A stretch of 34,904 nucleotides of DNA. Origin: Octopus sinensis. Its lineage: Eukaryota. Made by a program: the position numbers and the translations under genes. The notes beneath the pieces are model-generated. The model was given only the letters and a program-made list of their open reading frames with translations, did no database searches and was not told the DNA's origin. Shown here piece by piece: positions 1-17,601 of this stretch (its first letter is position 1; every line of letters begins with the position of its first letter). The DNA is taken from assembly GCF_006345805.1 (NCBI RefSeq), contig NW_021835542.1, positions 1 to 34,904 on the forward strand, in the 5' to 3' direction.

Positions 1-799
1 CTCAGGTTGTTTTCATGCACTTGGGACACTATTATCTCGTTTCTGGCTAACAAATGGTTGCAGCTAAATGTATACATTTTATTTATCCAATATATGACAA
101 AATTAATTTAATAAAGAGTTCAAGGCCGAAACATTGATCTAATATCCTCCAAAGGAGATATTAGTCCTTTCTCGAAAAAGTACCACTCTAGAAATGAATA
201 TTGTATGTCGTGCATTGTTACAAATTCCTAGTTTGGATCGACTAGCAGTAATCTGCATCAGGATGACCTTGTATACTGAACAGCTGAAAAAACTTGCAAA
301 ATTATATGCCAGGTCAGTTTGCAACAACTGAAGTTAAATAGACCATGTTGGGTACACTTCTTTTTGAAGTTAATGTTACTTATGTAGATATCTGCAAGAG
401 AATCTCACTGGATTCCGAGTAACAAAATATTTCCAGCAAGATTTACCCCTTTAAGAGCACCTGACTATATAGCCAGCCGAAAATATTTTTGGTTTAGACG
501 ACAACGTGAATTCACGCACATCTCATTAGTACATTTGGAAACACATTTCAGTTTGTAAATAGTTGTGTTTACACCCAACATTATTTGGTGCGATATCTGA
601 GCTCTGCGAATTTTGGGAGATATTTTTTTCTACATTGTTTTCTTTGGCAATGTTTTTCAAGTTTTAAAATGGATAACAGTTTCATGCAATCAAGCAGTGA
701 ATCTGATTGAGAAGTTTTCAACGGAAGATACAAGAAATTGAACACCATACAAGTGAAAAACAAAAGCATGTGCTGTATCAAAATGATTTAAAACTATTT

Positions 800-1640
800 T
801 TACAAACAATTTTTTCAGAAGAACTGGACCTACTCATATGTGGAGTACCAACTTCAATCCATAATTTAAAATCAGACCTGTCATCAAATGCATAAAACGA
901 CTCTACAACCCAGTACATACATGTAGTGATGCTGCTGTGTAAGGTTCAGCGCACATGCCAGAATGGGATTGCTTCCAGTTGGCCACCGGAAGTCTTCCCT
1001 GCGCATGTGCGGGGAAACTGACCCCTAAAACGCTGTTTCCTCATTCATCCTTTCTGGCCCTAACAGCCCTCGAGAACGGACGTGTACTGGCAGTCTCTGT
1101 GGAGTTCATACCAGCCAAGCAGCGAACCACGACGAATCATTTCGACCAACAAACAGAATCAGTACTACAGATTCGGCTGTCGGTTTCCCCTCCAAGAACA
1201 CGTACACCAGTCCTACATTACAACGAAAAATAAACACCATTACTTGCTGTGTTCGTAGACAACCTGACTTGTCTGTTATTTTTAAACTAAAATTGAAGGT
1301 GACGGGATCAGATCGGACACCCCTCCAGTGATACCGAATCCAATCCTGTTAATACCTATCCGTTGATAAAGGCAGAATACATTTCCTATGATATATGCCA
1401 GAAAACCACAAAGTAGGGAATCAAAGTCTGGAAGATTTGTGAAGCAAATATGGGGTACTGCTGTGGTATAGTTATAATTCAGAAAGAAGAGAAATGATCT
1501 AAGTCAGCATGGCCTAGGGCACAATGATTTGGAATTTATCACTTCCATACCATAACCAGACTGTATATCTTTTGACCAATTTTTTAGTTTAGTCAAACAT
1601 GTGTGGATATAATTGCGACACATACACATGTGCTAAGTAG
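800..1640 (+). pseudogene. piggyBac (PGBD4-like) transposase fossil, N-terminal/catalytic half, interrupted by a solo LTR
   Basis: Manual translation across frameshifts and stops gives FFRRTGP (~811), LYNP (~901), then after the LTR YLSVD-KGRIHFL*YMP, K*GIKVWKICEANMGYCC, HGLGHN, FDQFFSLV and DTYTCA (~1617-1634). These follow the piggyBac motifs SIDE..FKGR..QY.P.KP.KWGIK.W..C...GY, GLG, DNFF and CGT in order. Confidence 0.85.
922..1352 (+). mobile_element. Solo LTR (Ty3/gypsy-like), older degenerate copy
   Basis: Starts TGTAGTGATGC and ends CACCCCTCCAGTG..ATCCTGTTA(A), like the element at 16830-17601. AATAAA at 1229. It interrupts the piggyBac frame between YNP and YLSVD. The 4-bp TSD is imperfect (ATAC/ATAC or TACA/TACC depending on the boundary chosen). 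Confidence 0.7.
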
Positions 1641-1845
1641 TGACCTGGATATTGGGAATCATAAGGAAATGACACCATTGCTGGAAGCCGTCTCCGGGGC
1701 CCACACCTCGGAATTATCCATAAACTAATCATACATGGTGCAAATGTAATGCTGTCGACAATGATGGTAATAATTGTTTACCCCTCTCCATAATAAAAAA
1801 GAGAGGTTCCATTCTGAGGTGGAAACCATTCCCATTTTAGATGAG
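1641..1845 (+). pseudogene. Founder ankyrin-repeat exon fragment (5'-truncated, frameshifted); resembles octopus MIB2-like ankyrin proteins
   Basis: Reads DLDIGNHKEMTPLLEAVSGAH-LGIIHKLIIHGANVNAVDNDGNNCL.LSIIKKERFHSEVETIPILDE followed by GTAAGT. The ankyrin consensus (TPL..A...H.......L...GA.VN..D..G...LH) is clear. Indels of +2 (~1705) and -1 (~1749). The MIB2-like family assignment is from recall only. Confidence 0.8.
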
Positions 1846-4800
1846 GTAAGTTTTTAAAATTGATTTGTGAATATGTGTGTGTGTGGTTGGCATTAGGAAG
1901 GGCATGCAACCGCAGAAACTATGCCATAAGAAAATAACACCATTGCTGGAAGCCGTCTCCGGGGCCCACCTCGGAATTATCCATAAACTAATCATACATG
2001 GTGCAAATGTAAATGCTGTCGACAATGATGGTAATAATTGTTTACATAGCTTCCATAATAAAGAAAGAGATGTTCTATTCTGAGGTGGAAAAAATTCCCA
2101 TTTTAGATAAGGTAAGTTCTTAAAATTGTTTGTGAATATGTGTGTAGTTGGCATTAGGAAGGGCATGCAACCGCAGATACTATGCCATAAGAAAATAACA
2201 CCATTGCTGGACGCCGTCTCCGGGGCCCACCTCGGAATTATCCATAAAATTATCATACATGGTGCAAATATGAATGCCAACGACAATGATGGTAATAATT
2301 GTTTACACCTCTCCATAATAAAGAAAGAGATGTTTTATTCTGAGGTGGAAAATATTCCCATTTTAGATGAGGTAAGTTTTTAAAATTGTTTGTGAATATG
2401 TGTGTGTGTGGTTGGCATTAGGAAGGGCATGCAACCACAGAAACTATGCCATAAGAAAATAACACCATTTCTGGAAGCCGTCTTCGGGGCCCACCTCGAG
2501 ATTATCCATAAACTCATCATACATGGTGCAAATATGAATGCCGTTGACAATGATGGTAATAATTGTTTACACCTCTCCATAATAAAAAAAGAGATGTTCC
2601 ATTCTGAGGTGGAAACCATTCCCATTGTAGATGAGGTAAGTTTTTAAAATTGTTTGTGAATATGTGTGTGTGGTTGGCATTAGGAAGGGCATGCAACCGC
2701 AGAAACTTTGCCATAAGAAAATAACACCATTTCTGGAAGCCGTCTCCGGGGCCCACCTCGGAATTATCCATAAATTATCATACATGGTGCAAATATGAAT
2801 GCAACGACAATGATGGTAATAATTGTTTACACCTCTCCATAATAAAGAAAGAGATGTTCCATTCTGAGGAGGAGCATATTCCCATTTTAGATGAGGTAAG
2901 TTTTTAAAATTGTTTGTGAATATGTGTGTGTGGTTGGCATTAGGAAGGGCATGCAACCACAGAAACTATGCCATAAGAAAATAACACCATTGCTGGAAGC
3001 CGTCTCCGGGCCCACCTCGGAATTATCCATAAACTCATAATACATGGTGCAAATATGGATGCCAACGACAATGATGGTAATAATTGTTTACACCTCTCCA
3101 TAATAAAGAAAGAGATGTTTTATTCTGAGGTGGAAAATATTCCCATTTTAGATGAGGTAAGTTTTTAAAATTGTTTGTGAATATGTGTGTGTGGTTGGCA
3201 TTAGGAAGGGCATGCAACTGCAGAAACTATGCCATAAGAAAATAACAACCATTTCTGGAAGCAGTCTCCGGGCCCACCTCGGAATTATCCATAAAATTAT
3301 CATACATGGTGCAAATGAATGCCAACGACAATGATGGTAATAATTGTTTACATCTCTCCAATATAAAAAAGAGATGTTCTATTCTGAGGTGGAAACCATT
3401 CCCATTTTAGATGAGGTAAGCTTTTAAAATTGTTTGTAAAATATGTGTGTGTGGTTGGCATTAGGAAGGGCATGCAACCGCAGAAACTATGCCATACAAA
3501 ATAACACCATTGCTGGAAGCCGTCTCCGGGGCCCACCTCGAATTATCCATAAACTCATCATACATGGTGCAAATGTAAATGCTGTCGACAATGATGGTAA
3601 TAATTGTTTACATCTCTCCATAATAAAAAAAGAGATGTTCCATTCTGAGGTGGAAACCATTCCCATTTTAGATGAGGTAAGTTCTTAAAATTGTTTGTGA
3701 ATATGTGTGTGTGGTTGGCATTAGGAAGGGCATGCAACCGCAGAAACTATGCCATAAGAAAATAACACCATTTCTGGAAGCCGTCTCCGGGGCCCACCTC
3801 GGAATTATCCATAAACTTATCATACATGGTGCAAATGTAAATGCTGTCGACAATGATGGTAATAATTGTTTACACCTCTCCATAATAAAAAAAGAGATGT
3901 TCCATTCTGAGGTGGAAAATATTCCCATTTTAGATGAGGTAAGTTCTTAAAATTGTTTGTGAATGTGTGTGTGTGGTTGGCATTAGGAAGGGCATGCAAC
4001 CGCAGAAACTATGCCATAAGAAAATAACACCATTGCTGGAAGCCGTCTCCGGGGCCCACCTCGGAATTATCCATAAACTAATCATACATGGTGCAAATAT
4101 GAATGCCAACGACAATGATGGTAATAATTGTTTACACCTCTCCATAATAAAAAAAGAGAGGTTCCATTCTGAGGAGGAACATATTCCCATTTTAGATGAG
4201 GTAAGTTTTTAAAATTGTTTGTGAATATGTGTGTGTGTGGTTGGCATTAGGAAGGGCATGCAACCGCAGAAACTATGCCATAAGAAAATAACACCATTGC
4301 TGGAAGCCGTCTCCGGGGCCCACCTCGGAATTATCCATAAAATTATCATACATGGTGCAAATGTAAATGTTGTCGACAATGATGGTAATAATTGTTTACC
4401 CCTCTCCATAATAAAAAAAGAGAGGTTCCATTCTGAGGAGGAACATATTCCCATTTTAGATGAGGTAAGTTTTTAAAATTGTTTGTGAATATGTGTGTGT
4501 GTGGTTGGCATTAGGAAGGGTATGCAATGCGCAGAAACTATGCCATAAGAAAATAACACCATTGCTGGAAGCCGTCTCCGGGGCCCACCTCGGAATTATC
4601 CATAAAATATCATACATGGTGCAAATGTAAATGTTGTCGACAATGATGGTAATAATGTTTACCCCTCTCCATAATAAAAAAAGAGAGGTTCCATTCTGAG
4701 GAGAACATATTCCCATTTTAGATGAGGTAAGTTTTTAAAATTGTTTGTGAATATGTGTGTGTGTGGTTGGCATTAGGAAGGGCATACAACCGCAGAAACT

Positions 4801-7800
4801 ATGCCATAAGAAAATAACACCATTGCTGGAAGCCGTCTCCGGGGCCCACCACGGAATTATCCATAAAATTATCATATATGGTGCAAATGTAAATGTTGTC
4901 GACAATGATGGTAATAATTGTTTACCCCTCTCCATAATAAAAAAAGAGATGTTCCATTCTGAGGAGGAACATATTCCCATTTTAGATGAGGTAAGTTTTT
5001 AAAATTGTTTGTGAATATGTGTGTGTGTGGTTGGCATTAGGAAGGGCATACAACCGCAGAAACTATGCCATAAGAAAATAACACCATTGCTGGAAGCCGT
5101 CTCCGGGGCCCACCACGGAATTATCCATAAAATTATCATATATGGTGCAAATGTAAATGTTGTCGACAATGATGGTAATAATTGTTTACCCCTCTCCATA
5201 ATAAAAAAAGAGAGGTTCCATTCTGAGGAGGAACATATTCCCATTTTAGATGAGGTAAGTTTTTAAAATTGTTTGTGAATATGTGTGTGTGGTTGGCATT
5301 AGGAAGGGCATACAACCGCAGAAACTATGCCATAAGAAAATAACACCATTGCTGGAAGCCGTCTCCGGGGCCCACCACGGAATTATCCATAAAATTATCA
5401 TATATGGTGCAAATGTAAATGTTGTCGACAATGATGGTAATAATTGTTTACCCCTCTCCATAATAAAAAAAGAGATGTTCCATTCTGAGGAGGAACATAT
5501 TCCCGAAAATAACACCATTGCTGGAAGCCGTCTCCGGGGCCCACCACGGAATTATCCATAAAATTATCATATATGGTGCAAATGTAAATGTTGTCGACAA
5601 TGATGGTAATAATTGTTTACCCCTCTCCATAATAAAAAAAGAGAGGTTCCATTCTGAGGAGGAACATGTTCCCATTTTAGATGAGGTAAGTTTTTAAAAT
5701 TGTTTGTGAATATGTGTGTGTGTGGTTGGCATTAGGAAGGGCATACAACCGCAGAAACTATGCCATAAGAAAATAACACCATTGCTGGAAGCCGTCTCCG
5801 GGGCCCACCACGGAATTATCCATAAAATTATCATATATGGTGCAAATGTAAATGTTGTCGACAATGATGGTAATAATTGTTTACCCCTCTCCATAATAAA
5901 AAAAGAGAGGTTCCATTCTGAGTTGGAAACCATTCCCATTTTAGATGAGGTAAGTTTTTAAAATTGTTTGTGAATATGTGTGTGTGTGGTTGGCATTAGG
6001 AGGACATGCAACCGCAGAAACTATGCCATAAGAAAATAACACCATTGCTGGAAGCCGTCTCCGGGGCCCACCTCGGAATTATCCATAAAATTATCATACA
6101 TGGTGCAAATGTAAATGTTGTCGACAATGATGGTAATAATTGTTTACCCCTCTCCATAATAAAAAAAGAGAGGTTCCATTCTGAGGAGGAACATATTCCC
6201 ATTTTAGATGAGGTAAGTTTTTAAAATTGTTTGTGAATATGTGTGTGTGTGGTTGGCATTAGGAAGGGCATGCAACCGCAGAAACTATGCCATAAGAAAA
6301 TAACACCATTGCTGTAAGCTGTCTCCGGGCCCCCCCCTCGGAATTATCCATAAACTCATCATACATGGTGCAAATATGAATGCTGTCGACAATGATGGTA
6401 ATAATTGTTTACCCCTCTCCATAATAAAGAAAGAGATGTTCCATTCTGAGGTGGAAAATATTCCCATTTTAGATGAGGTAAGTTCTTAAAATTGCTTGTG
6501 AATATGTGTGTGTGGTTGGCATTAGGAAGGGCATGCAACCGCAGAAACTATGCCATAAGAAAAATAACACCATTGCTTGAAGCCGTCTCCGGGGCCCACC
6601 TCGGAATTATCCATAAAATTATCATACATGGTGCAAATGTAAATGTTGTCGACAATGATGGTAATAATTGTTTACCCCTCTCGATAATAAAAAAAGAGAG
6701 GTTCCATTCTGAGGAGGAACATATTCCCATTTTAGATGAGGTAAGTTTTTAAAATTTTGTTTGTGAATATGTGTGTGTGGTTTGCATTAGGAAGGGCATG
6801 CAACCGCAGAAACTATGCCATAAGAAAATAACACCATTGCTGGAAGCCGTCTCCGGGGCCCACCTCGGAATTATCCATAAAATTATCATACATGGTGCAA
6901 ATGTAAATGTTGTCGACAATGATGGTAATAATTGTTTACCCCTCTCCATAATAAAAAAAGAGAGGTTCCATTCTGAGGAGGAACATATTCCCATTTTAGA
7001 TGAGGTAAGTTTTTAAAATTGTTTGTGAATATGTGTGTGTGTGGTTGGCATTAGGAAGGACATGCAACCGCAGAAACTATGCCATAAGAAAATAACACCA
7101 TTGCTGGAAGCCGTCTCCGGGGCCCACCTCGGAATTATCCATAAAATTATCATACATGGTGCAAATGTAAATGTTGTCGACAATGATGGTAATAATTGTT
7201 TACCCCTCTCCATAATAAAAAAAGAGATGTTCTATTCTGAGTTGGAAACCATTCCCATTTTAGATGAGGTAAGTTTTTAAAATTGTTTGTGAATATGTGT
7301 GTGTGTGGTTGGCATTAGGAAGGACATGCAACCGCAGAAACTATGCCATAAGAAAATAACACCATTGCTGGAAGCCGTCTCCGGGGCCCACCTCGGAATT
7401 ATCCATAAAATTATCATACATGGTGCAAATGTAAATGTTGTCGACAATGATGGTAATAATTGTTTACCCCTCTCCATAATAAAAAAAGAGAGGTTCCATT
7501 CTGAGGAGGAACATATTCCCATTTTAGATGAGGTAAGTTTTTAAAATTGTTTGTGAATATGTGTGTGTGTGGTTGGCATTAGGAAGGGCATGCAACCGCA
7601 GAAACTATGCCATAAGAAAATAACACCATTGCTGGAAGCTGTCTCCGGGGCCCACCTCGGAATTATCCATAAACTCATCATACATGGTGCAAATATGAAT
7701 GCTGTCGACAATGATGGTAATAATTGTTTACACCTCTCCATAATAAAGAAAGAGATGTTCTATTCTGAGGTGGAAAATATTCCCATTTTAGATGAGGTAA

Positions 7801-9695
7801 GTTTTTAAAATTGTTTGTGAATATGTGTGTGTGGTTGGCATTAGGAAGGGCATGCAACCGCAGATACTATGCCATAAGAAAATAACACCATTGCTTGAAG
7901 CCGTCTCCGGGGCCCACCTCGGAATTATCCATAAACTCATCATACATGGTGCAAATATGAATGCTGTCGACAATGATGGTAATAATTGTTTACATCTCTC
8001 CATAATTAAGAAAGAGATGTTCCATTCTGAGGTGGAAAATATTCCCATTTTAGATGAGGTAAGTTCTTAAAATTGCTTGTGAATATGTGTGTGTGGTTGG
8101 CATTAGGAAGGGCATGCAACCGCAGAAACTATGCCATAAGAAAAATAACACCATTGCTTGAAGCCGTCTCCGGGGCCCACCTCGGAATTATCCATAAACT
8201 CATCATACATGGTGCAAATGTAAATGCTGTCGACAATGATGGTAATAATTGTTTACACCTCTCCATAATAGAGATGTTCCATTCTGAGGTGAAAATATTC
8301 CCATTTTAGATGAGGTAAGTTTTTAAAATTGTTTGTGAATATGTGTGCGTGTGGTTGGCATTAGGAAGGGCATGCAACCGCAGAAACTATGCCATAAGAA
8401 AATAACACCATTGCCGGAAGCCGTCACTGGGGCCCACCTCGGAATTATCCATAAACTTATCATACATGGTGCAAATATGAATGCTGTCGACTATGATGGT
8501 AATAATTGTTTACACCTCTCCATAATAAAAAAAGAGATGTACCATTCTGAGGTGGAAAATATTCCCATTTTAGATGAGGTAAGTTCTTAAAATTGTTTGT
8601 GAATATGTGTGTGTGGTTGGCATTAGGAAGGGCATGCAACCGCAGAAACTACGCCATAAGAAAAATAACACCATTGCTTGAAGCCGTCTCCGGGGCCCAC
8701 CTCGGAATTATCCATAAACTCATCATACATGGTGCAAATATGAATGCCGTCGACAATGATGGTAATAATTGTTTACACCTCTCCATAATAAAAAAAGAGA
8801 TGTTCTATTCTGAGGTGGAAAATATTCCAATTTTAGATGAGGTAAGTTCTTAAAATTGTTTGTGAATATGTGTGTGTGTGGTTGGCATTAGGAAGGGCAT
8901 GCAACCGCAGAAACTATGCCATAAGAAAATAACACCATTGCTGGAAGCCGTCTCCGGGGCCCACCTCGAAATTATCCATAAACTCATCATACATGGTGCA
9001 AATGTAAATGCTCTCGACAATGATGGTAATAATTGTTTACACCTCTCCATAATAAAAAAAGAGATGTTCCATTCTGAGGTGGAAACCATTCCCATTTTAG
9101 ATGAGGTAAGTTTTTAAAATTGTTTGTGAATATGTGTGCGTGTGGTTGGCATTAGGAAGGGCATGCAACCGCAGAAACTTTGCCATAAGAAAATAACACC
9201 ATTTCTGGAAGCCGTCTCGGGGCCCACCTCGGAATTATCCATAAACTTATCGTACATGGTGCAAATATGAATGCCAACGACAATGATGGTAATATTGTTT
9301 ACACCTCTCCATAATAAAGAAAGAGATGTTCCATTCTGAGGTGGAAACCATTCCCATTTTAGATGAGGTAAGTTTTTAAAATTGTTTGTGTGGTTGGCAT
9401 TAGGAAGGGCATGCAACCGCAGAAACTATGCCATAAGAAAATAACACCATTGCTGGAAGCCGTCACTGGGGCCCACCTCGGAATTATCCATAAAATTATC
9501 ATACATGGTGCAAATATGAATGCCAACGACAATGATGGCGATAATTGTTTACCCCTCTCCATAATAAAGAAAGAGATGTTCTATTCTGAGGTGGAAACCA
9601 TTCCCATTTTAGATGAGGTAAGTTTTTAAAATTGTTTGTGAATATGTGTGTGTGGTTGGCATTAGGAAGGGCATGCAACCGCAGAAACTATGCCA
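1660..9695 (+). repeat. Tandem array of 31 ankyrin-exon/donor/RTE-fragment units (~262-264 bp; 30 donors plus one internally deleted copy)
   Basis: (G/A)AG|GTAAG donors recur from 1846 to ~9618 at ~262-264 bp spacing. Repeated 81-aa ORFs in the track read ...KITPLLEAVSGAHLGIIHK(L/I)IIHGAN(V/M)N..DNDGNNCL(H/P)LSIIKKE..SE..IPILDE. Unit length varies mainly through (GT)n. Confidence 0.97.
4270..4464 (+). pseudogene. Representative open ankyrin cassette (195 nt, 65 codons) between CAG and GTAAGT
   Basis: CCGCAG|AAACTATGC...GATGAG|GTAAGT. The frame is open with phase 0 at both ends; about 17 of 31 units are open in this way. There is no evidence of expression. Confidence 0.55.
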
Positions 9696-9800
9696 AAACT
9701 GGCAATTGGTGCCTGAGCAGCTCTGCAGCTGCCCAGCTTCTACCGAACTATCCAACCCATGCCAGCATAGAAAACGAATTAAAAATGATGATGAGGAGGA
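9652..9800 (+). mobile_element. RTE-LINE 3' end (or RTE-partner SINE tail); complete version of the fragment carried in each array unit
   Basis: GTGGTTGGCATTAGGAAGGGCAT...CCAACCCATGCCAGCATAGAAAACG..ATGATGATG. The same sequence terminates the RTE ORF2 remnant at ~20590-20753. Confidence 0.8.
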
Positions 9801-10489
9801 TGTGTGTATGTGTGAGTGAGAGAAATAGAGAAACAGGCAGATATTGTTGGCTATTTTCTTTCACTCCCATCCACTTCTCTTCCTTTAGTATTAAATAGTT
9901 CAGTTTCCCCTGATAGCACTAGTTGTATTATGTAACTAACAATATTCCATCTTCTTTCACCTTCAAAAGCATGGCCACTGCACTGTAAAGAATGTAACCC
10001 ATCTTAAATATGTGTCATGTAAACACTGCTATCACTGTATGAAGGAGAGGTGACCAACGACAGAGATAAGTCTTTAAATTTAAGAAAGAGAAATTCACAA
10101 ACTGTTTTAAATATCGAATTTCAAGTTAAACGAGTTGAACTGTGTTAATTGCTAGAAAGCATACTTCATTATTCTTTTTCAAAGAAAGGAAAAGGAAAAT
10201 AAATTTGTTTATGGACAATTAAATTTAAAGAAAACATACTCATGGAATTCGAAGAAAGTTTCTTTTATCAGTATGACAATGAATATATAACTGAGTTTAT
10301 TCAAAGTTGATAATTAGGGTTCCAAATATTGCCAGGGATTGGACTGTGTGTATATTGACTACAGTAATACCCCTTGCAATGATTGTAAAGAAGGGAGATG
10401 TGAGGAGAATGAATTTACATTAAGATGTGTGCACAAAAGTGCAATGTCCCGAGATTGTATGTATGATGATGTAACTAGACAGATAGTCT

Positions 10490-10628
10490 AGAGGCCCTTT
10501 GTTACCAACAAAGATAGCTCTCTGAACTTTGCCCTGCTTAATCTTATTCTAGCAGCTATGCTCTTGGCGCATCCACCTCCACTACTGACCTGATTACCTA
10601 GATAACAGTAGCTATCAACCACTTCTAG

Positions 10629-10630
<2 letters not shown>
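10490..10630 (-). mobile_element. RTE-clade LINE ORF2 fragment (C-terminal to RT)
   Basis: The reverse strand reads LEVVDSYCYLGNQVSSGGGCAKSIAARIRLSRAKFRELSLLVTKGL, matching the RTE motif E.V..F.YLG......RI.....F..L. Confidence 0.8.

Positions 10631-10632
<2 letters not shown>

Positions 10633-10677
<45 letters not shown>
10633..10677. repeat. (TA)n microsatellite
   Basis: Directly visible. Confidence 0.95.
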
Positions 10678-10679
<2 letters not shown>

Positions 10680-11295
10680 TGAATTCGACTTATTGAGTAT
10701 ATATGTGGATGTCCGCTTGCTTTACATGGTACAATCATGGTTGATATAATTATTATTATTATTAATATTAGTGACTTTTTGTGTGGTTATACGGACTGTT
10801 AAATATATATGCCTGCTTCAAATTTAAATGTGAGTGTACATGTATTTCCTTGATGTTGGTTATAGAACTATGAGTTCAATATGGAACATTATTGTGTTTG
10901 TTAATGTATATTGATATATATTGTTTATATTGTATTATTGTGTATATATATATGTGTAGAATTATGAGTGTGTATGCACACATTTTTATATTTATATGTA
11001 AATTTTTTTCATACTTACATTAAATTCTCTGAAGAGGCCGTGAGACATTCTTGTTAATGTCTCATTTATACCTGCTTTATATGGCTAATAGGTTAAATGG
11101 GACATACCTGTCTTCACGGCCGAAACAGCTGTCAGCTACAATGTAAATGTATTTTCTATTTCTATGTCTTGTTATATTTGTAATATATTATGTATAATGT
11201 CATTACTGTTGTGTAATGGTTTAATAAAGTATTGATTGGGTATTATCTGATGGTTGATGATTGATTTAGGTATGTTTCTCCATTTTCTCATTTTG
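10678..11295 (+). mobile_element. Penelope-like element terminal-repeat (pLTR) remnant between (TA)n tracts
   Basis: AT/TG-rich segment bounded by (TA)n and containing a minimal type I hammerhead motif of the kind described for PLE terminal repeats. No PLE ORF seen. Confidence 0.5.
11027..11135 (+). ncRNA. Type I hammerhead ribozyme-like motif
   Basis: CTGAAGA (11029-35); stem II GGCCGTGAGACA/TGTCTTCACGGCC; GAAA (11122-25); C-AGCT-GTC palindromic stem III with GUC cleavage triplet (11131-33); short CT/AG stem I. Confidence 0.7.

Positions 11296-11356
<61 letters not shown>
11296..11356. repeat. Compound (TA)n(TG)n microsatellite
   Basis: Directly visible. Confidence 0.95.
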
Positions 11357-11359
<3 letters not shown>

Positions 11360-11469
11360 GTTTGAAAGACCTCAGCATCTATCCACTGGTAGATCTGATG
11401 GTGTTTATTGTCTGTTGTTGCAGAATTTAAGCAACTCTTTGATTCCCTAATATGTAACGGTCACTACAG

Positions 11470-11730
11470 ATGTGTGTAGAAAGGGATCCTTAGTCGTAGT
11501 GAAGGCAATCTATCTAGGGAGATAACCTTATAATAAATCACTCGGTCCGTAGCTTAGAAATACTGGGTTGACGTCCAGCGGGAACAGCTTTGTTTCATGG
11601 AGGTGGAAAGATCTTCTTTAGTACATGGTTGTACAATGCTTTCCAATGTGCGCAGTAGTGGCGCGCGCACACATTATTAGCCATTTGAAAAGACTATGAG
11701 TCTCGACCATGGTCGAAAATGATGATGATG
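11470..11730 (+). mobile_element. Short structured element ending in a palindrome and (GAT)n tail; probable non-autonomous retroelement
   Basis: TCGACCATGGTCGA palindrome (11703-16) followed by AAATGATGATGATG. Internal hairpin AATGTGCGC..GCGCACACATT. 5' boundary uncertain. Confidence 0.4.
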
Positions 11731-12349
11731 CTAGTAGAAAAGGGTTGTCAGTGGATATGAAAAAAGCAAAATTAAAACAAAAAAAAAGTGAAATAATCCA
11801 AGAGCTGAAAAGAAATCTATCTACCTATGCACAACCATGTGTAGATGAAAACGGCACCCTGTTTGTAAACCTTGATTATAACAGGTACATGGGCAGCGTA
11901 GATCAGCTGAATCAAATAATAAGCTATTATCCAGTTGGTACACTGGGTAATAAATGATGGTGATACCTGGATGTCCTTCCTAACACCAACCACTCCAAGC
12001 GTGTAGCCAACCATTCCAAGAGTGTTCATATTATATAGCAAATCAGGAGGGGCTTGAAAGCAGCGTGACCATCTGCAGCTCCAAGCAACTGTAGCAACAC
12101 AGTTGAGGAAACGTTATTCCTTCAACAAAATAGGACAGAAAGCCAAAGCCTGCCAGAGAGACATCCCTCTCAATTAAGCCAATCTCCACAATAAAAAAAA
12201 ATTAAAAAATTGAGGGTGCCGTGAATGGCTGCATCAACAAAACTCCCAGTGGATGGACAGTTGAAACTTCTTTCCAATGGGCATTTTGCAAGGGCGCAAT
12301 ATGTAGAATGGGATGTTTTACAAGTTTCTATGACAGAAATATTGTGTGA
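11730..12349 (+). pseudogene. piggyBac transposase fossil, C-terminal half including the Cys-rich domain
   Basis: ASRKGLSVDMKKAKLKQK..LSTYAQP..DYNRYMGSVDQLNQIISYYPVG..K*W*YL matches piggyBac NRKG.P, LST, DYN..MGGVD..DQ..SYY and KWW. It then reads GCRE..KTPSGWTVETSFQWAFCKGAICRMGCFTSF, with a stop at 12347-49. Confidence 0.9.
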
Positions 12350-13089
12350 ATATTATTATTATATACCGAATATTACCGTTGATTGTTGAAGTATAAAGAC
12401 GTGTTTTCACTCCTCTCCACGCTGGTCAGCAGCAAGCTTCACAGCTACAAACGAAATTGACCGTCACTTATATTCCTATTCATTCGAAACCACGCGTTTC
12501 TCGACTCGTGAGTAGACTTTTCTTTAACTACAAATTATTTCCAGAAATTTAAGCAAAACTACACACTCTTATGAGAGAGTATTTATTTATATATACACCC
12601 CGTCAACACCTTCTGTTAACTAAAGGATCACCCACCCAATAAAAAATAGAAGAAAAAAAAGAAGAAAAGAAAGAAATTTACTGCAAGCTCATAATTCAAA
12701 TACAATCACATATTTCTAAGTATTCCAGCCAATATTCTGTACAATCTATTCTATTCTACATACTTCTCCCTAAACAAAGAATAAATTTTTTTTTAAATGT
12801 ATGATTACATTTTATAAATATTTTTCAAATTTACTTTGTTTCTACTTTTTATTTGCCTGTAAATTGCAATTTACCTGTAAGGTGACAAGTTCTGATTTAA
12901 CTTCTATTGTAAATCTTTATTATATACATTTTTAAGTATTCATGTATGTGTGCAAGTTTTATAAAAACACAACGGGATTTTTTCAAGCATCGAATGGTTA
13001 AGAGGGCCTATCTGAGTAAAATAGGAAACAAGAGGGTCCACAAGTAAAAAATGGTCGAGAACACCTATTCTAGATGGTTCTTTTGCCAA

Positions 13090-13700
13090 CAACAACCCAT
13101 GCTGCTGACACATGTTTAGAGTACTGCCAGAATTGAAAAACAGTCAGCTACTGTCCAGCAATGATGCCTCCAAAGAAATCCATGTTAAAATCACGGTATA
13201 GCAACAGCTTGTTCATGTGAGAGGCCAAGTAACGGACCAATCACGTAACAGATCCATCAGACATCATTTAACAGAAAACTCTTGGAGCTTCTAAGATATT
13301 CTCTAAACAAGACCTACAAATAGGCACATTTCTGAGCGCCAATTTTTAGTGTGTGGCAACATGCAGCTCAGCTCCATAAACTCTCTTGCTGTTTTTAATA
13401 ATGGTTATCAGAGCTCTTATGCAACTATAAGATTCCGTTAGAGTTGGCCGATATGAATTCAAAGTGTATATTTTCTCCTGTCTTGGCAAGCTTAATTACA
13501 AAGCCTTCTTAATCAACAATTTGTAATAGCTACAGGATTATTTTTCACATTGTATCAAATTCGTTGCAGCAGCTATTTCACAACCAACAAGAAAATTACT
13601 TGTGCAGTGAAATAAATCTCGTTAATTTATCACAGGTGTTGTGCATTCATTACATGCAGAACTGTCAATATTCTGTCATTTCCTATTCATGATAATCCTA
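13090..13700 (-). mobile_element. Highly degenerate CR1/L2-like LINE APE endonuclease remnant
   Basis: Reverse-strand fragments ILTVLHV.NAQHL (~13670-13631), LFVGLV*R and KLLLYRDFNMDF (~13217-13173) occur in the order expected for H.N.RSL, G.IYRPP and GDFN. Confidence 0.4.
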
Positions 13701-16829: not shown

Positions 16830-17601
16830 TGTAGTGATGCCATCTTGGAAATCTCCAGCACGCATGCGCAGAGCTGGATTCTTCCAGGAGGCCTGCCAGA
16901 AGTTCCCTCATGCGCATGCGCAGAGCTGGATTCTTCCGGGAGGCCCGCCAGAAGTTCCCTTATGCGCATGTGCAGAGCTGGATTCTTCCGGGAGGCCCGC
17001 CAGAAGTTCCCTTATGCGCAGAGCTGGATTCTTCCGGGAGGCCCGCCGGAAGTTCCCTCATGCGCATGCACAGAGCTGGATTCTTCCAGGAGGCCCGCCG
17101 GAAGTTCCCTCATGCGCAGAGCTGGATTCTTCCAGGAGGCCCGCCAGAAGTTCCCTCATGCGCAGAGCTGGATTCTTCCGGGAGGCCCGCCAGACGTTTG
17201 CGCATGCGCAGAGCTGGATTCTTCCTGGAGGCCCGCCAGAAGTTCCCTCATGCGCATACGCAGAAAACTAGCAGCAGCGAAATTCCCTTGTATCGTTCTC
17301 TCGAACGCCAGCAGCTGAACAAGACAGTCGTGTTTTATCAGCTCTCTCAAACTGCTACCTCGTGGCGTGTCTCTGCTATGCCTGAACGGACAGGATTTGG
17401 CTCACTCCACTTGACTACTGTGATAAGCTCCTAGGCTGCCGATTCGCCCAGAAAGAAGAATGTATACATTGCGAATCAAGAAATAAATATTTATACTGTT
17501 GAAGTTAAATCGGAAGTCTTGACTCTTTCCTTCGATTAATATTTAATGTAAAAGGATGCGAGCTGCACCCTTCCAGTGCAGGGACCTCCCATCCTGTTAC
17601 A
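16830..17601 (+). mobile_element. Solo LTR (Ty3/gypsy-like) with 4-bp TSD
   Basis: GTAT|TGTAGTGATGC...ATCCTGTTACA|GTAT: TG..CA ends, TSD at 16826-29 and 17602-05, AATAAA at 17482. Confidence 0.85.
16861..17257. repeat. GC-rich minisatellite, 8 units of 46/52 bp, inside the LTR
   Basis: Unit CAGAGCTGGATTCTTCC(A/G)GGAGGCCCGCC(A/G)GAAGTTCCCTCATGCG(CATGCG). It explains the ORFs in all three frames. Confidence 0.95.

Follow-up and report, generated by a model that had tools for sequence, protein, structure and literature searches.

The window analysed here, the whole of the unplaced Octopus sinensis contig NW_021835542.1 (G000:C12013; 34,904 nt of a 2.7-Gb genome), contains a decayed piggyBac transposase copy that is split by a composite insertion. 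The insert joins part of an ankyrin exon and its intron, since amplified into a tandem array, to a short derivative of a long interspersed nuclear element (LINE). We consider it likely that the insert arose in a single, RNA-templated and LINE-primed event. A more specific version, in which the reverse transcriptase (RT) of the partner LINE inserted the gene fragment and the short element together as a 5' transduction of unspliced RNA, is in our view given an even chance.

A single LINE-primed event is argued for by the tail at the right junction, the two target bases shared there, the co-orientation of the two parts and their matching ages. The retroelement origin of the right end is indicated by a junction that falls precisely where the (TGA)n tail ends, and by the target site duplications (TSDs) that flank other copies of the short element. 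The ages of the two parts are concordant: the short-element copy differs by 3.7% from the commonest letters of its family, and the intron values are 2.4-3.4%. With the calibration given in the accessible text of PMC13282606 (0.09 for 25 million years), the insertion would be roughly 7-10 million years old.

Table 1 Features of the insertion and of the piggyBac copy that it splits, in window coordinates
Feature	Position	Strand	Description
piggyBac 5' part	503..1639	+	decayed, internally deleted transposase copy (PGBD-type); colinear with 28 family copies, to which its pieces show 65-82% identity
First unit	1640..1845	+	donor ankyrin exon without its first 5-6 nt; 16 donor paralogs align from here
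Tandem array	1660..9695	+	31 units of ~262-264 bp
Donor intron	9622..11476	+	covers ~1.2 kb of an intron of ~2 kb; ends ...CAGATGTGTG
Penelope-like 3' end, 5'-truncated	10678..11296	+	inside the (TA)n of the intron; 1,865 candidates
Bipartite non-autonomous LINE derivative	11476..11730	+	LINE 5' untranslated region (UTR) plus last 34 nt; lacks the first 3 G
Stem-loop and (TGA)n tail	11703-16 and 11719-30	+	within the short LINE derivative
piggyBac 3' part	11729..13001	+	A-S-R-K-G onward; 67-85% identity to family copies

The insertion splits a single piggyBac copy

A search with the left flank returned 499 candidate relatives, and 28 other family copies were fetched. In 21 of these 28, the alignments of the left flank (up to 1639) and of the right flank (11729 onward) are separated by 2-3 nt, and in the remaining seven the alignment is lost near 1600-1611. 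An unbroken family copy (L057) encodes a DDE_Tnp_1_7 domain (E 6e-82), and both halves of the window copy align to it. Hence both halves belong to one family, and the proposal of an earlier note on this DNA, that one piggyBac was split by the insert, is borne out.

The junction alignment shows that the left part finishes ...TGT GCT A[C]A GTA (C-A-T-V). The unbroken family sequence is TGT GCT ACA GTA ATT GCT AGT AGA AAA GGG (CATVIASRKG), with four additional codons (TVIA-type) between two TGCTA-like units in all 21 unbroken copies. This bears on the earlier note, which had read a near-repeat, TGCTAAGTAG (1631-40) and TGCTAGTAG (11729-37), as a TSD. The letters are present at these positions; they represent native piggyBac sequence with a one-base gap, as indicated by the four codons in the unbroken copies and by the C10 allele, which has TGCTACAGTAG in place of TGCTAAGTAG. 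The proposed rejoining to CANRKG likewise omits the four codons. The same note had suggested that unbroken copies would carry AGT-AGA at the motif if the insert was retrotransposed and AAT-AGA if it was captured by a Helitron; AGT-AGA was found in 18/21 and AAT-AGA in 1/21.

The true insert extends from 1640 to about 11728. Measured against the family copies, the target has lost ~2 bases (AT), nothing was duplicated and no TSD surrounds the whole insertion. An original TSD could nevertheless have been present, as a normal one of 9 bp would yield the same left-junction letters if a 10-nt slip between AGTA repeats had collapsed it afterwards. The first letters of the insert, (A)GTGA, are donor exon sequence. 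At the left junction 1 nt is common to insert and target, with a 4-nt CAGT match 3 nt away; at the right junction the last TG of the (TGA)n tail is common to the target.

The ends of the piggyBac are TTAA-CCCTTTCG...CGAAAGGG-TTAA, the TTAA-flanked inverted repeats being clear in two family copies. The window copy has a probable degenerate terminal repeat at 12991-13001, with TTAA at 12998-13001, and its 5' terminus is not recognisable. Another locus (L004) was considered as an intermediate with the element already in piggyBac, and was rejected as a chance A-rich extension.

The window is colinear with 97,125,692-97,157,046 of the chromosome-scale contig C10 (98.6% over 29 kb) and is thus an allelic version of that region; the proteins closest to the exon of the insert are labelled Octopus sinensis. 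Contigs of other sequencing runs span the left junction (X4), the junction between gene part and element (X1), the junction between tail and piggyBac (X4, X12) and the array unit junction (X3, X4). The second and third of these are also present in a daughter copy on C14. As the bridging runs carry four organism labels, the structure of the insert is not an assembly artefact. X4 contigs, from a run guessed to be RNA, cover flanks and intron alike and are therefore uninformative on transcription. No empty orthologous site was seen among the matches listed for the contigs of other runs.

The gene part derives from an expanded Ank-RING-DEATH family

The exon originates from an expanded Ank-RING-DEATH (MIB2-like) family, located mostly on C27, C28 and unplaced contigs. 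Sixteen paralogs align with the insert from 1640-1645 to about 11476, across both exon and intron. The donor exon is 213 nt long and of phase 0, and the insert starts 5-6 nt into it, which confirms that the insert begins mid-exon and carries intron sequence. No homology to the upstream donor exon that would prove a spliced RNA was found at the left junction. The donor intron part carries a (TGA)n-tailed repeat near its start. The next annotated donor exon (CCREL...) lies well downstream of the right break of the insert in the donors, and the insert therefore stops ~1.2 kb into a ~2-kb intron. An alternative in which the insert ends at a donor stop in the last exon (NLSNSL...DV*) was ruled out, as the annotated proteins continue ILDE-CCREL, on an exon further downstream. 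The parent gene is not in cis, since this exon is the sole match of the parent protein within 80 kb of C10.

The donor comparison used the 9 of the 16 paralogs that were extractable. The first kb of the intron differs by 2.8-5.4% from these nine, of which 2.4% is the private stem of the insert. The tree is star-like and without a supported sister, and among the nine no extant paralog is clearly the donor. The family as a whole comprises ~40 paralogous exon copies (69-93% identity), spread over C27, C28 and C29 as well as contigs without a chromosomal placement.

The right end is a short derivative of an intact LINE

The short element is ~255 bp long and lies in the same orientation as the gene piece. 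It has 415 candidate copies, which end in (GAT)n and not at CTAG, the end that a Helitron origin would have required. TSDs of at least 6 nt flank 20/27 copies (24/47 by a stricter rule) and mostly start with AT or T, often ATG. The element corresponds to an intact LINE, encoding endonuclease (EN) and RT, that has been deleted internally, its 5' and 3' ends being joined without the open reading frame (ORF). Nucleotides 1-229 match the LINE copies L239 and L240 at 96-97%, and nucleotides 230-264 at 97%. Four fetched places matched the last 34 nt only, and these are 3' ends of the LINE ORF, ending ...STTVEQ. A full copy of the partner LINE has a 1,051-aa open frame with apurinic/apyrimidinic (AP) endonuclease and RT domains (PF03372/PF14529 and PF00078) and a (TGA)n tail. 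The sequence of a single ORF with EN and RT and a microsatellite tail matches the RTE design, and membership of that clade is putative. The partner LINE L239 (G000:C7:89191226-89194601) is intact, and the LINE has 26,400 candidate fragments. In a further LINE copy, L261 (G000:C3:131403522), part of the 3' end of the copy lies inverted ahead of its 5' leader.

Nearly all short copies (26/27) begin at a G-run (GGGG), and a shared leader is found 5' of it at 70 places, reaching a length of ~80 nt among the 16 of these that were inspected. Two TSD-flanked copies (L016 and L193) are clipped and start at the same GTAG as the window copy, which is without three G of the first helix. A fold of P1/P2/P3 type, which we take to resemble that of the hepatitis delta virus (HDV) ribozyme, can be drawn for the element; LINE AGCCC and short-element GGTCC both pair with GGGCT, so that two differences between LINE and short element preserve one helix of the drawn fold. 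A self-cleaving 5' fold, as suspected from this prediction, would account for copies starting at GGGG as opposed to the leader. The family appears very young, with 14/27 copies (among L009-L030) identical to its commonest letters. The short element and the intact LINE are probably an active pair, with the ~80-nt leader suggesting 5' self-cleavage. The young element and the intact octopus LINE make the idea of 5' processing directly testable. A literature search by title and start of abstract, mostly of open-access work and outside Repbase, Dfam and supplements, returned nothing on the locus or the element. The accessible text of PMC9115989 describes an expressed octopus RTE that differs in length from the partner LINE found here.

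A tandem array has grown in place

Each array unit consists of 186 nt of exon, GT and a 55-70 nt intron start ending CAG, plus 9 nt, and the unit junction has a 2-nt CA microhomology. The C10 allele carries 17 units compared to 31 in the window. Units differ by a mean of 5.7% and form mosaic haplotypes, and near either end of the array the two alleles have units that match, from which we conclude that the array grew by unequal exchange in place. A genome-wide pattern search located the array junction at 43 places, all of them in the window, on C10 or in one piece on C4. Rolling-circle activity, once suggested as the cause of the amplification, is not needed for a junction confined to the locus (both alleles) and one 215-bp daughter piece. 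Without the amplification the insert measures 2,283 bp, in agreement with the ~2.3 kb estimated before.

The exon part of the array is more diverse (6.5%) than the intron part of the units (2.2-2.6%) and than the intron distance between insert and donors. Donor exons show the same excess (5.3%). Candidate causes are mutation hotspots, conversion or diversifying selection; a comparison for gene conversion from distant paralogs into the array gave some shared codons, in numbers that chance could produce.

A Penelope-like passenger and two daughter copies

The Penelope-like sequence is contiguous, in its family, with a 743-aa ORF, for which no Pfam match was obtained; its Atlas neighbours carry RVT_1/GIY-YIG at 0.95-0.96. 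The piece is present in 0/17 donor loci. A core near 11029-11135, CTGAAGA ... GAAA closed by a long stem (fold z -4.7), has motifs that we take to be hammerhead-like, and Rfam returned no match for it.

Two pieces of the locus have been copied elsewhere. The C14 daughter (G000:C14:39012526-39014930) is a copy of window 10634-13253, diverged by 0.8-1.6%. It begins at the (TA)n of the Penelope piece. Its left end shows a templated repeat, 198 nt are deleted at a 4-nt microhomology, and its right end is a 15-nt fold-back; no TSD was seen around it. The C4 daughter (G000:C4:91088412-91088626) consists of 215 bp of the array including the unit junction, at 97% identity, and is flanked by an imperfect 11-12-nt direct repeat.

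Two further tandem arrays occur at window 27137-28757 (356 bp x 4.5) and 16861-17264 (~46-51 bp x 8), and the C10 allele has each of them as well.

Origin of the insert

In the reading we favour, a short-element copy clipped of its first three G would have resided in sense in an intron of a paralog that is absent from the present assembly. Directly 5' of the short element, the donor letters ATGTGTG resemble a TSD of the family and would be the old target duplication of this clipped copy. Transcription of the host gene would have run through exon and intron into the element, whose clipped 5' end would escape the processing that starts copies at GGGG; such a copy is of the kind expected to stay joined to host RNA. 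The 70 places with a shared leader indicate that the family can carry RNA from 5' of the G-run. The LINE enzyme would then nick the piggyBac at ...AT^TGCTAG and prime on the tail (TG shared). Reverse transcription of ~1.65 kb would halt 5-6 nt before the exon start, and the 5' end would be joined via microhomology with the loss of ~2 target bases. A 264-bp duplication at the CA microhomology would later seed the array, with unequal exchange expanding and contracting the units, and the Penelope piece would have come in separately. Target-primed reverse transcription (TPRT) of unspliced RNA with a (TGA)n tail had already been put forward in the earlier note. This core of the proposal survives as the best reading; its TSD does not, and the source element was not found.

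Several observations weigh against this reading. None of the 16 paralogs carries the short element at the site. Genome-wide patterns place the gene-element junction at only three places (the window, its allele and the C14 daughter), and the tail-plus-donor pattern gave only eight matches, all of them empty sites. The final insertion has no TSD, and with the intron retained there is no proof that the gene piece was copied from RNA. Little weight attaches to the ATG clue, as 20% of intron positions drawn at random have an ATG 6-13 nt upstream. The HDV-like fold amounts to no more than a pattern that can be drawn, and Rfam searches of the insert end and the full short element gave nothing at threshold and no ribozyme. 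Among the non-TSD copies of the stricter-rule set (47 copies), no long foreign 5' piece with a convincing distant TSD was found, the sole partial case being a 38-nt leader in L190. Furthermore, the C14 daughter looks like DNA-level copying, which hence operates at the locus.

Part of this is relieved by a template switch, in which the LINE enzyme copies free short-element RNA nearly to its 5' end and then jumps to nascent, intron-containing ankyrin pre-mRNA. The TPRT start is the same, a source copy is unnecessary and the assembly is indeed without an element-bearing donor; the junction lies 3 nt from the usual 5' end of the element, and co-orientation is expected according to the accessible part of 10.1101/2025.02.02.635956. 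A putative R2 template jump appears in the accessible text of PMC3774820. However, the exact microhomology at the switch is just 1 nt, the three G are absent here although 26/27 copies reach the full GGGG, and the enzyme would have to enter the RNA mid-intron. We regard a template switch as possible, and distinctly less probable than transduction.

A somewhat more doubtful explanation involves two steps. The short element would have retrotransposed into the piggyBac, or its intermediate would have stayed unresolved there, and synthesis from ectopic ankyrin genomic DNA would have patched a break at the 5' junction of the element. Such a repair would delete the left TSD together with the three G. 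The absent TSD, the microhomology and 3-nt AGT stutter at the left junction and the retained intron are all in line with repair, as are the templated repeats, microhomology deletion and fold-back end of the C14 daughter; collapse of a normal 9-bp TSD through the AGTA slip gives identical left-junction letters. Against this, the capture must land within a few bases of the short element's 5' terminus, and the ages of both parts agree. In addition, the left break lies 5-6 nt from the splice acceptor, which is improbable by chance and would be easier on RNA.

Helitron capture with rolling-circle amplification, to which a 14-nt palindrome (11703-16) 14 nt ahead of CTAG and the missing TSD had seemed to point, is refuted: CTAG belongs to the piggyBac codons GCT AGT, the supposed hairpin consists of the last codons and 3' stem-loop of the partner LINE, as the last 34 nt of the short element are the LINE 3' end, the insert starts with GTGA and not TC, copies of the element elsewhere terminate in (GAT)n, and the tandem unit is an internal 264 bp and not the whole insert.

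Function of the array

The locus is most likely a non-functional fossil. It is improbable, though predictable from the sequence, that the array acts as an exon cassette, its units being spliced into a 17-31-fold ankyrin polymer of a length that varies between alleles. Each unit could, by prediction, splice as a 195-nt, phase-0 exon, with the donor GT and a CAG from the intronic repeat; GT and CAG are retained in 44/44 units. An open 186-nt frame is present in 17/31 window units, and nine C10 units are open; in the remaining units there are indels of 1-2 nt, frequently within homopolymers, and these may represent read errors. The pN/pS of the array is 0.58, compared to 0.42 in the donors. Distinct changes number 20 synonymous and 42 non-synonymous (p 0.04, for open-frame units only and with no correction for transition bias). 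Only 10/69 intron sites are variable, so the five invariant splice bases, expected about half the time, are unremarkable. The acceptor is without a pyrimidine tract; neither promoter nor start nor host gene was identified for the array. Scanning 97 of the 147 candidate frames in 80 kb for a host gene gave one Penelope RT/GIY-YIG and one sub-threshold Zip match.

If the cassette is spliced, junction reads would join ...GATGAG to AAACTATGCCATAAG. It would then be a gene born from 5' transduction by a ribozyme-dead retroelement, and the importance of the locus, which is probably inert, would be much greater.

Comparison with known systems

The process is a known one, of which this locus offers a well-resolved new instance: a traceable case, outside mammals, of a retroelement the size of a short interspersed nuclear element carrying an intron-containing gene fragment, with donor family, LINE, target and daughters identified. 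It illustrates that intron retention is compatible with retrotransposition, and that a hairpin plus CTAG is insufficient for a Helitron call. Published systems are compared below as the accessible portions of the cited papers describe them.

The insert has the features of a 5' transduction, with the element at the 3' end, its tail at the junction and host sequence in sense upstream. SVA and LINE-1 5' transductions (PMC12593883) likewise carry host sequence in sense upstream of the retroelement and take the source TSD along, and their source element may be missing from the reference. In contrast to these, the driver here, a bipartite element of 255 bp, has a tail of (TGA)n and not of poly(A), and the 5' piece is ~1.4 kb long compared to a published mean of 172 bp, with no TSD and the source not found.

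Template-switch chimeras (U6/L1 and mRNA/L1; 10.1101/2025.02.02.635956) also place foreign RNA 5' of the element in the same orientation. They usually have TSDs and involve small RNAs or spliced first exons, whereas an internal exon with a retained intron and a mid-intron end is found here.

The short element itself resembles the bipartite derivatives of RTE-type LINEs (Bov-A, RTESINE and WALLSI3; PMC5786205), in which a 5' UTR is joined to the extreme 3' end of an EN/RT LINE, with a microsatellite tail and TSDs. This non-autonomous design is described mainly for RTE. The octopus element differs in that most copies start ~80 nt inside the 5' end of the LINE, and its RTE membership is putative.

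Penelope-mediated gene dispersal (PMC3846280) shares the retained intron and the presence of a Penelope-like piece in the insert. Unlike those captures, which are framed by pseudo long terminal repeats (pLTRs) and have a TSD, the piece here is internal, frames neither end and is thus a passenger, although the C14 daughter copy has it at its left end.

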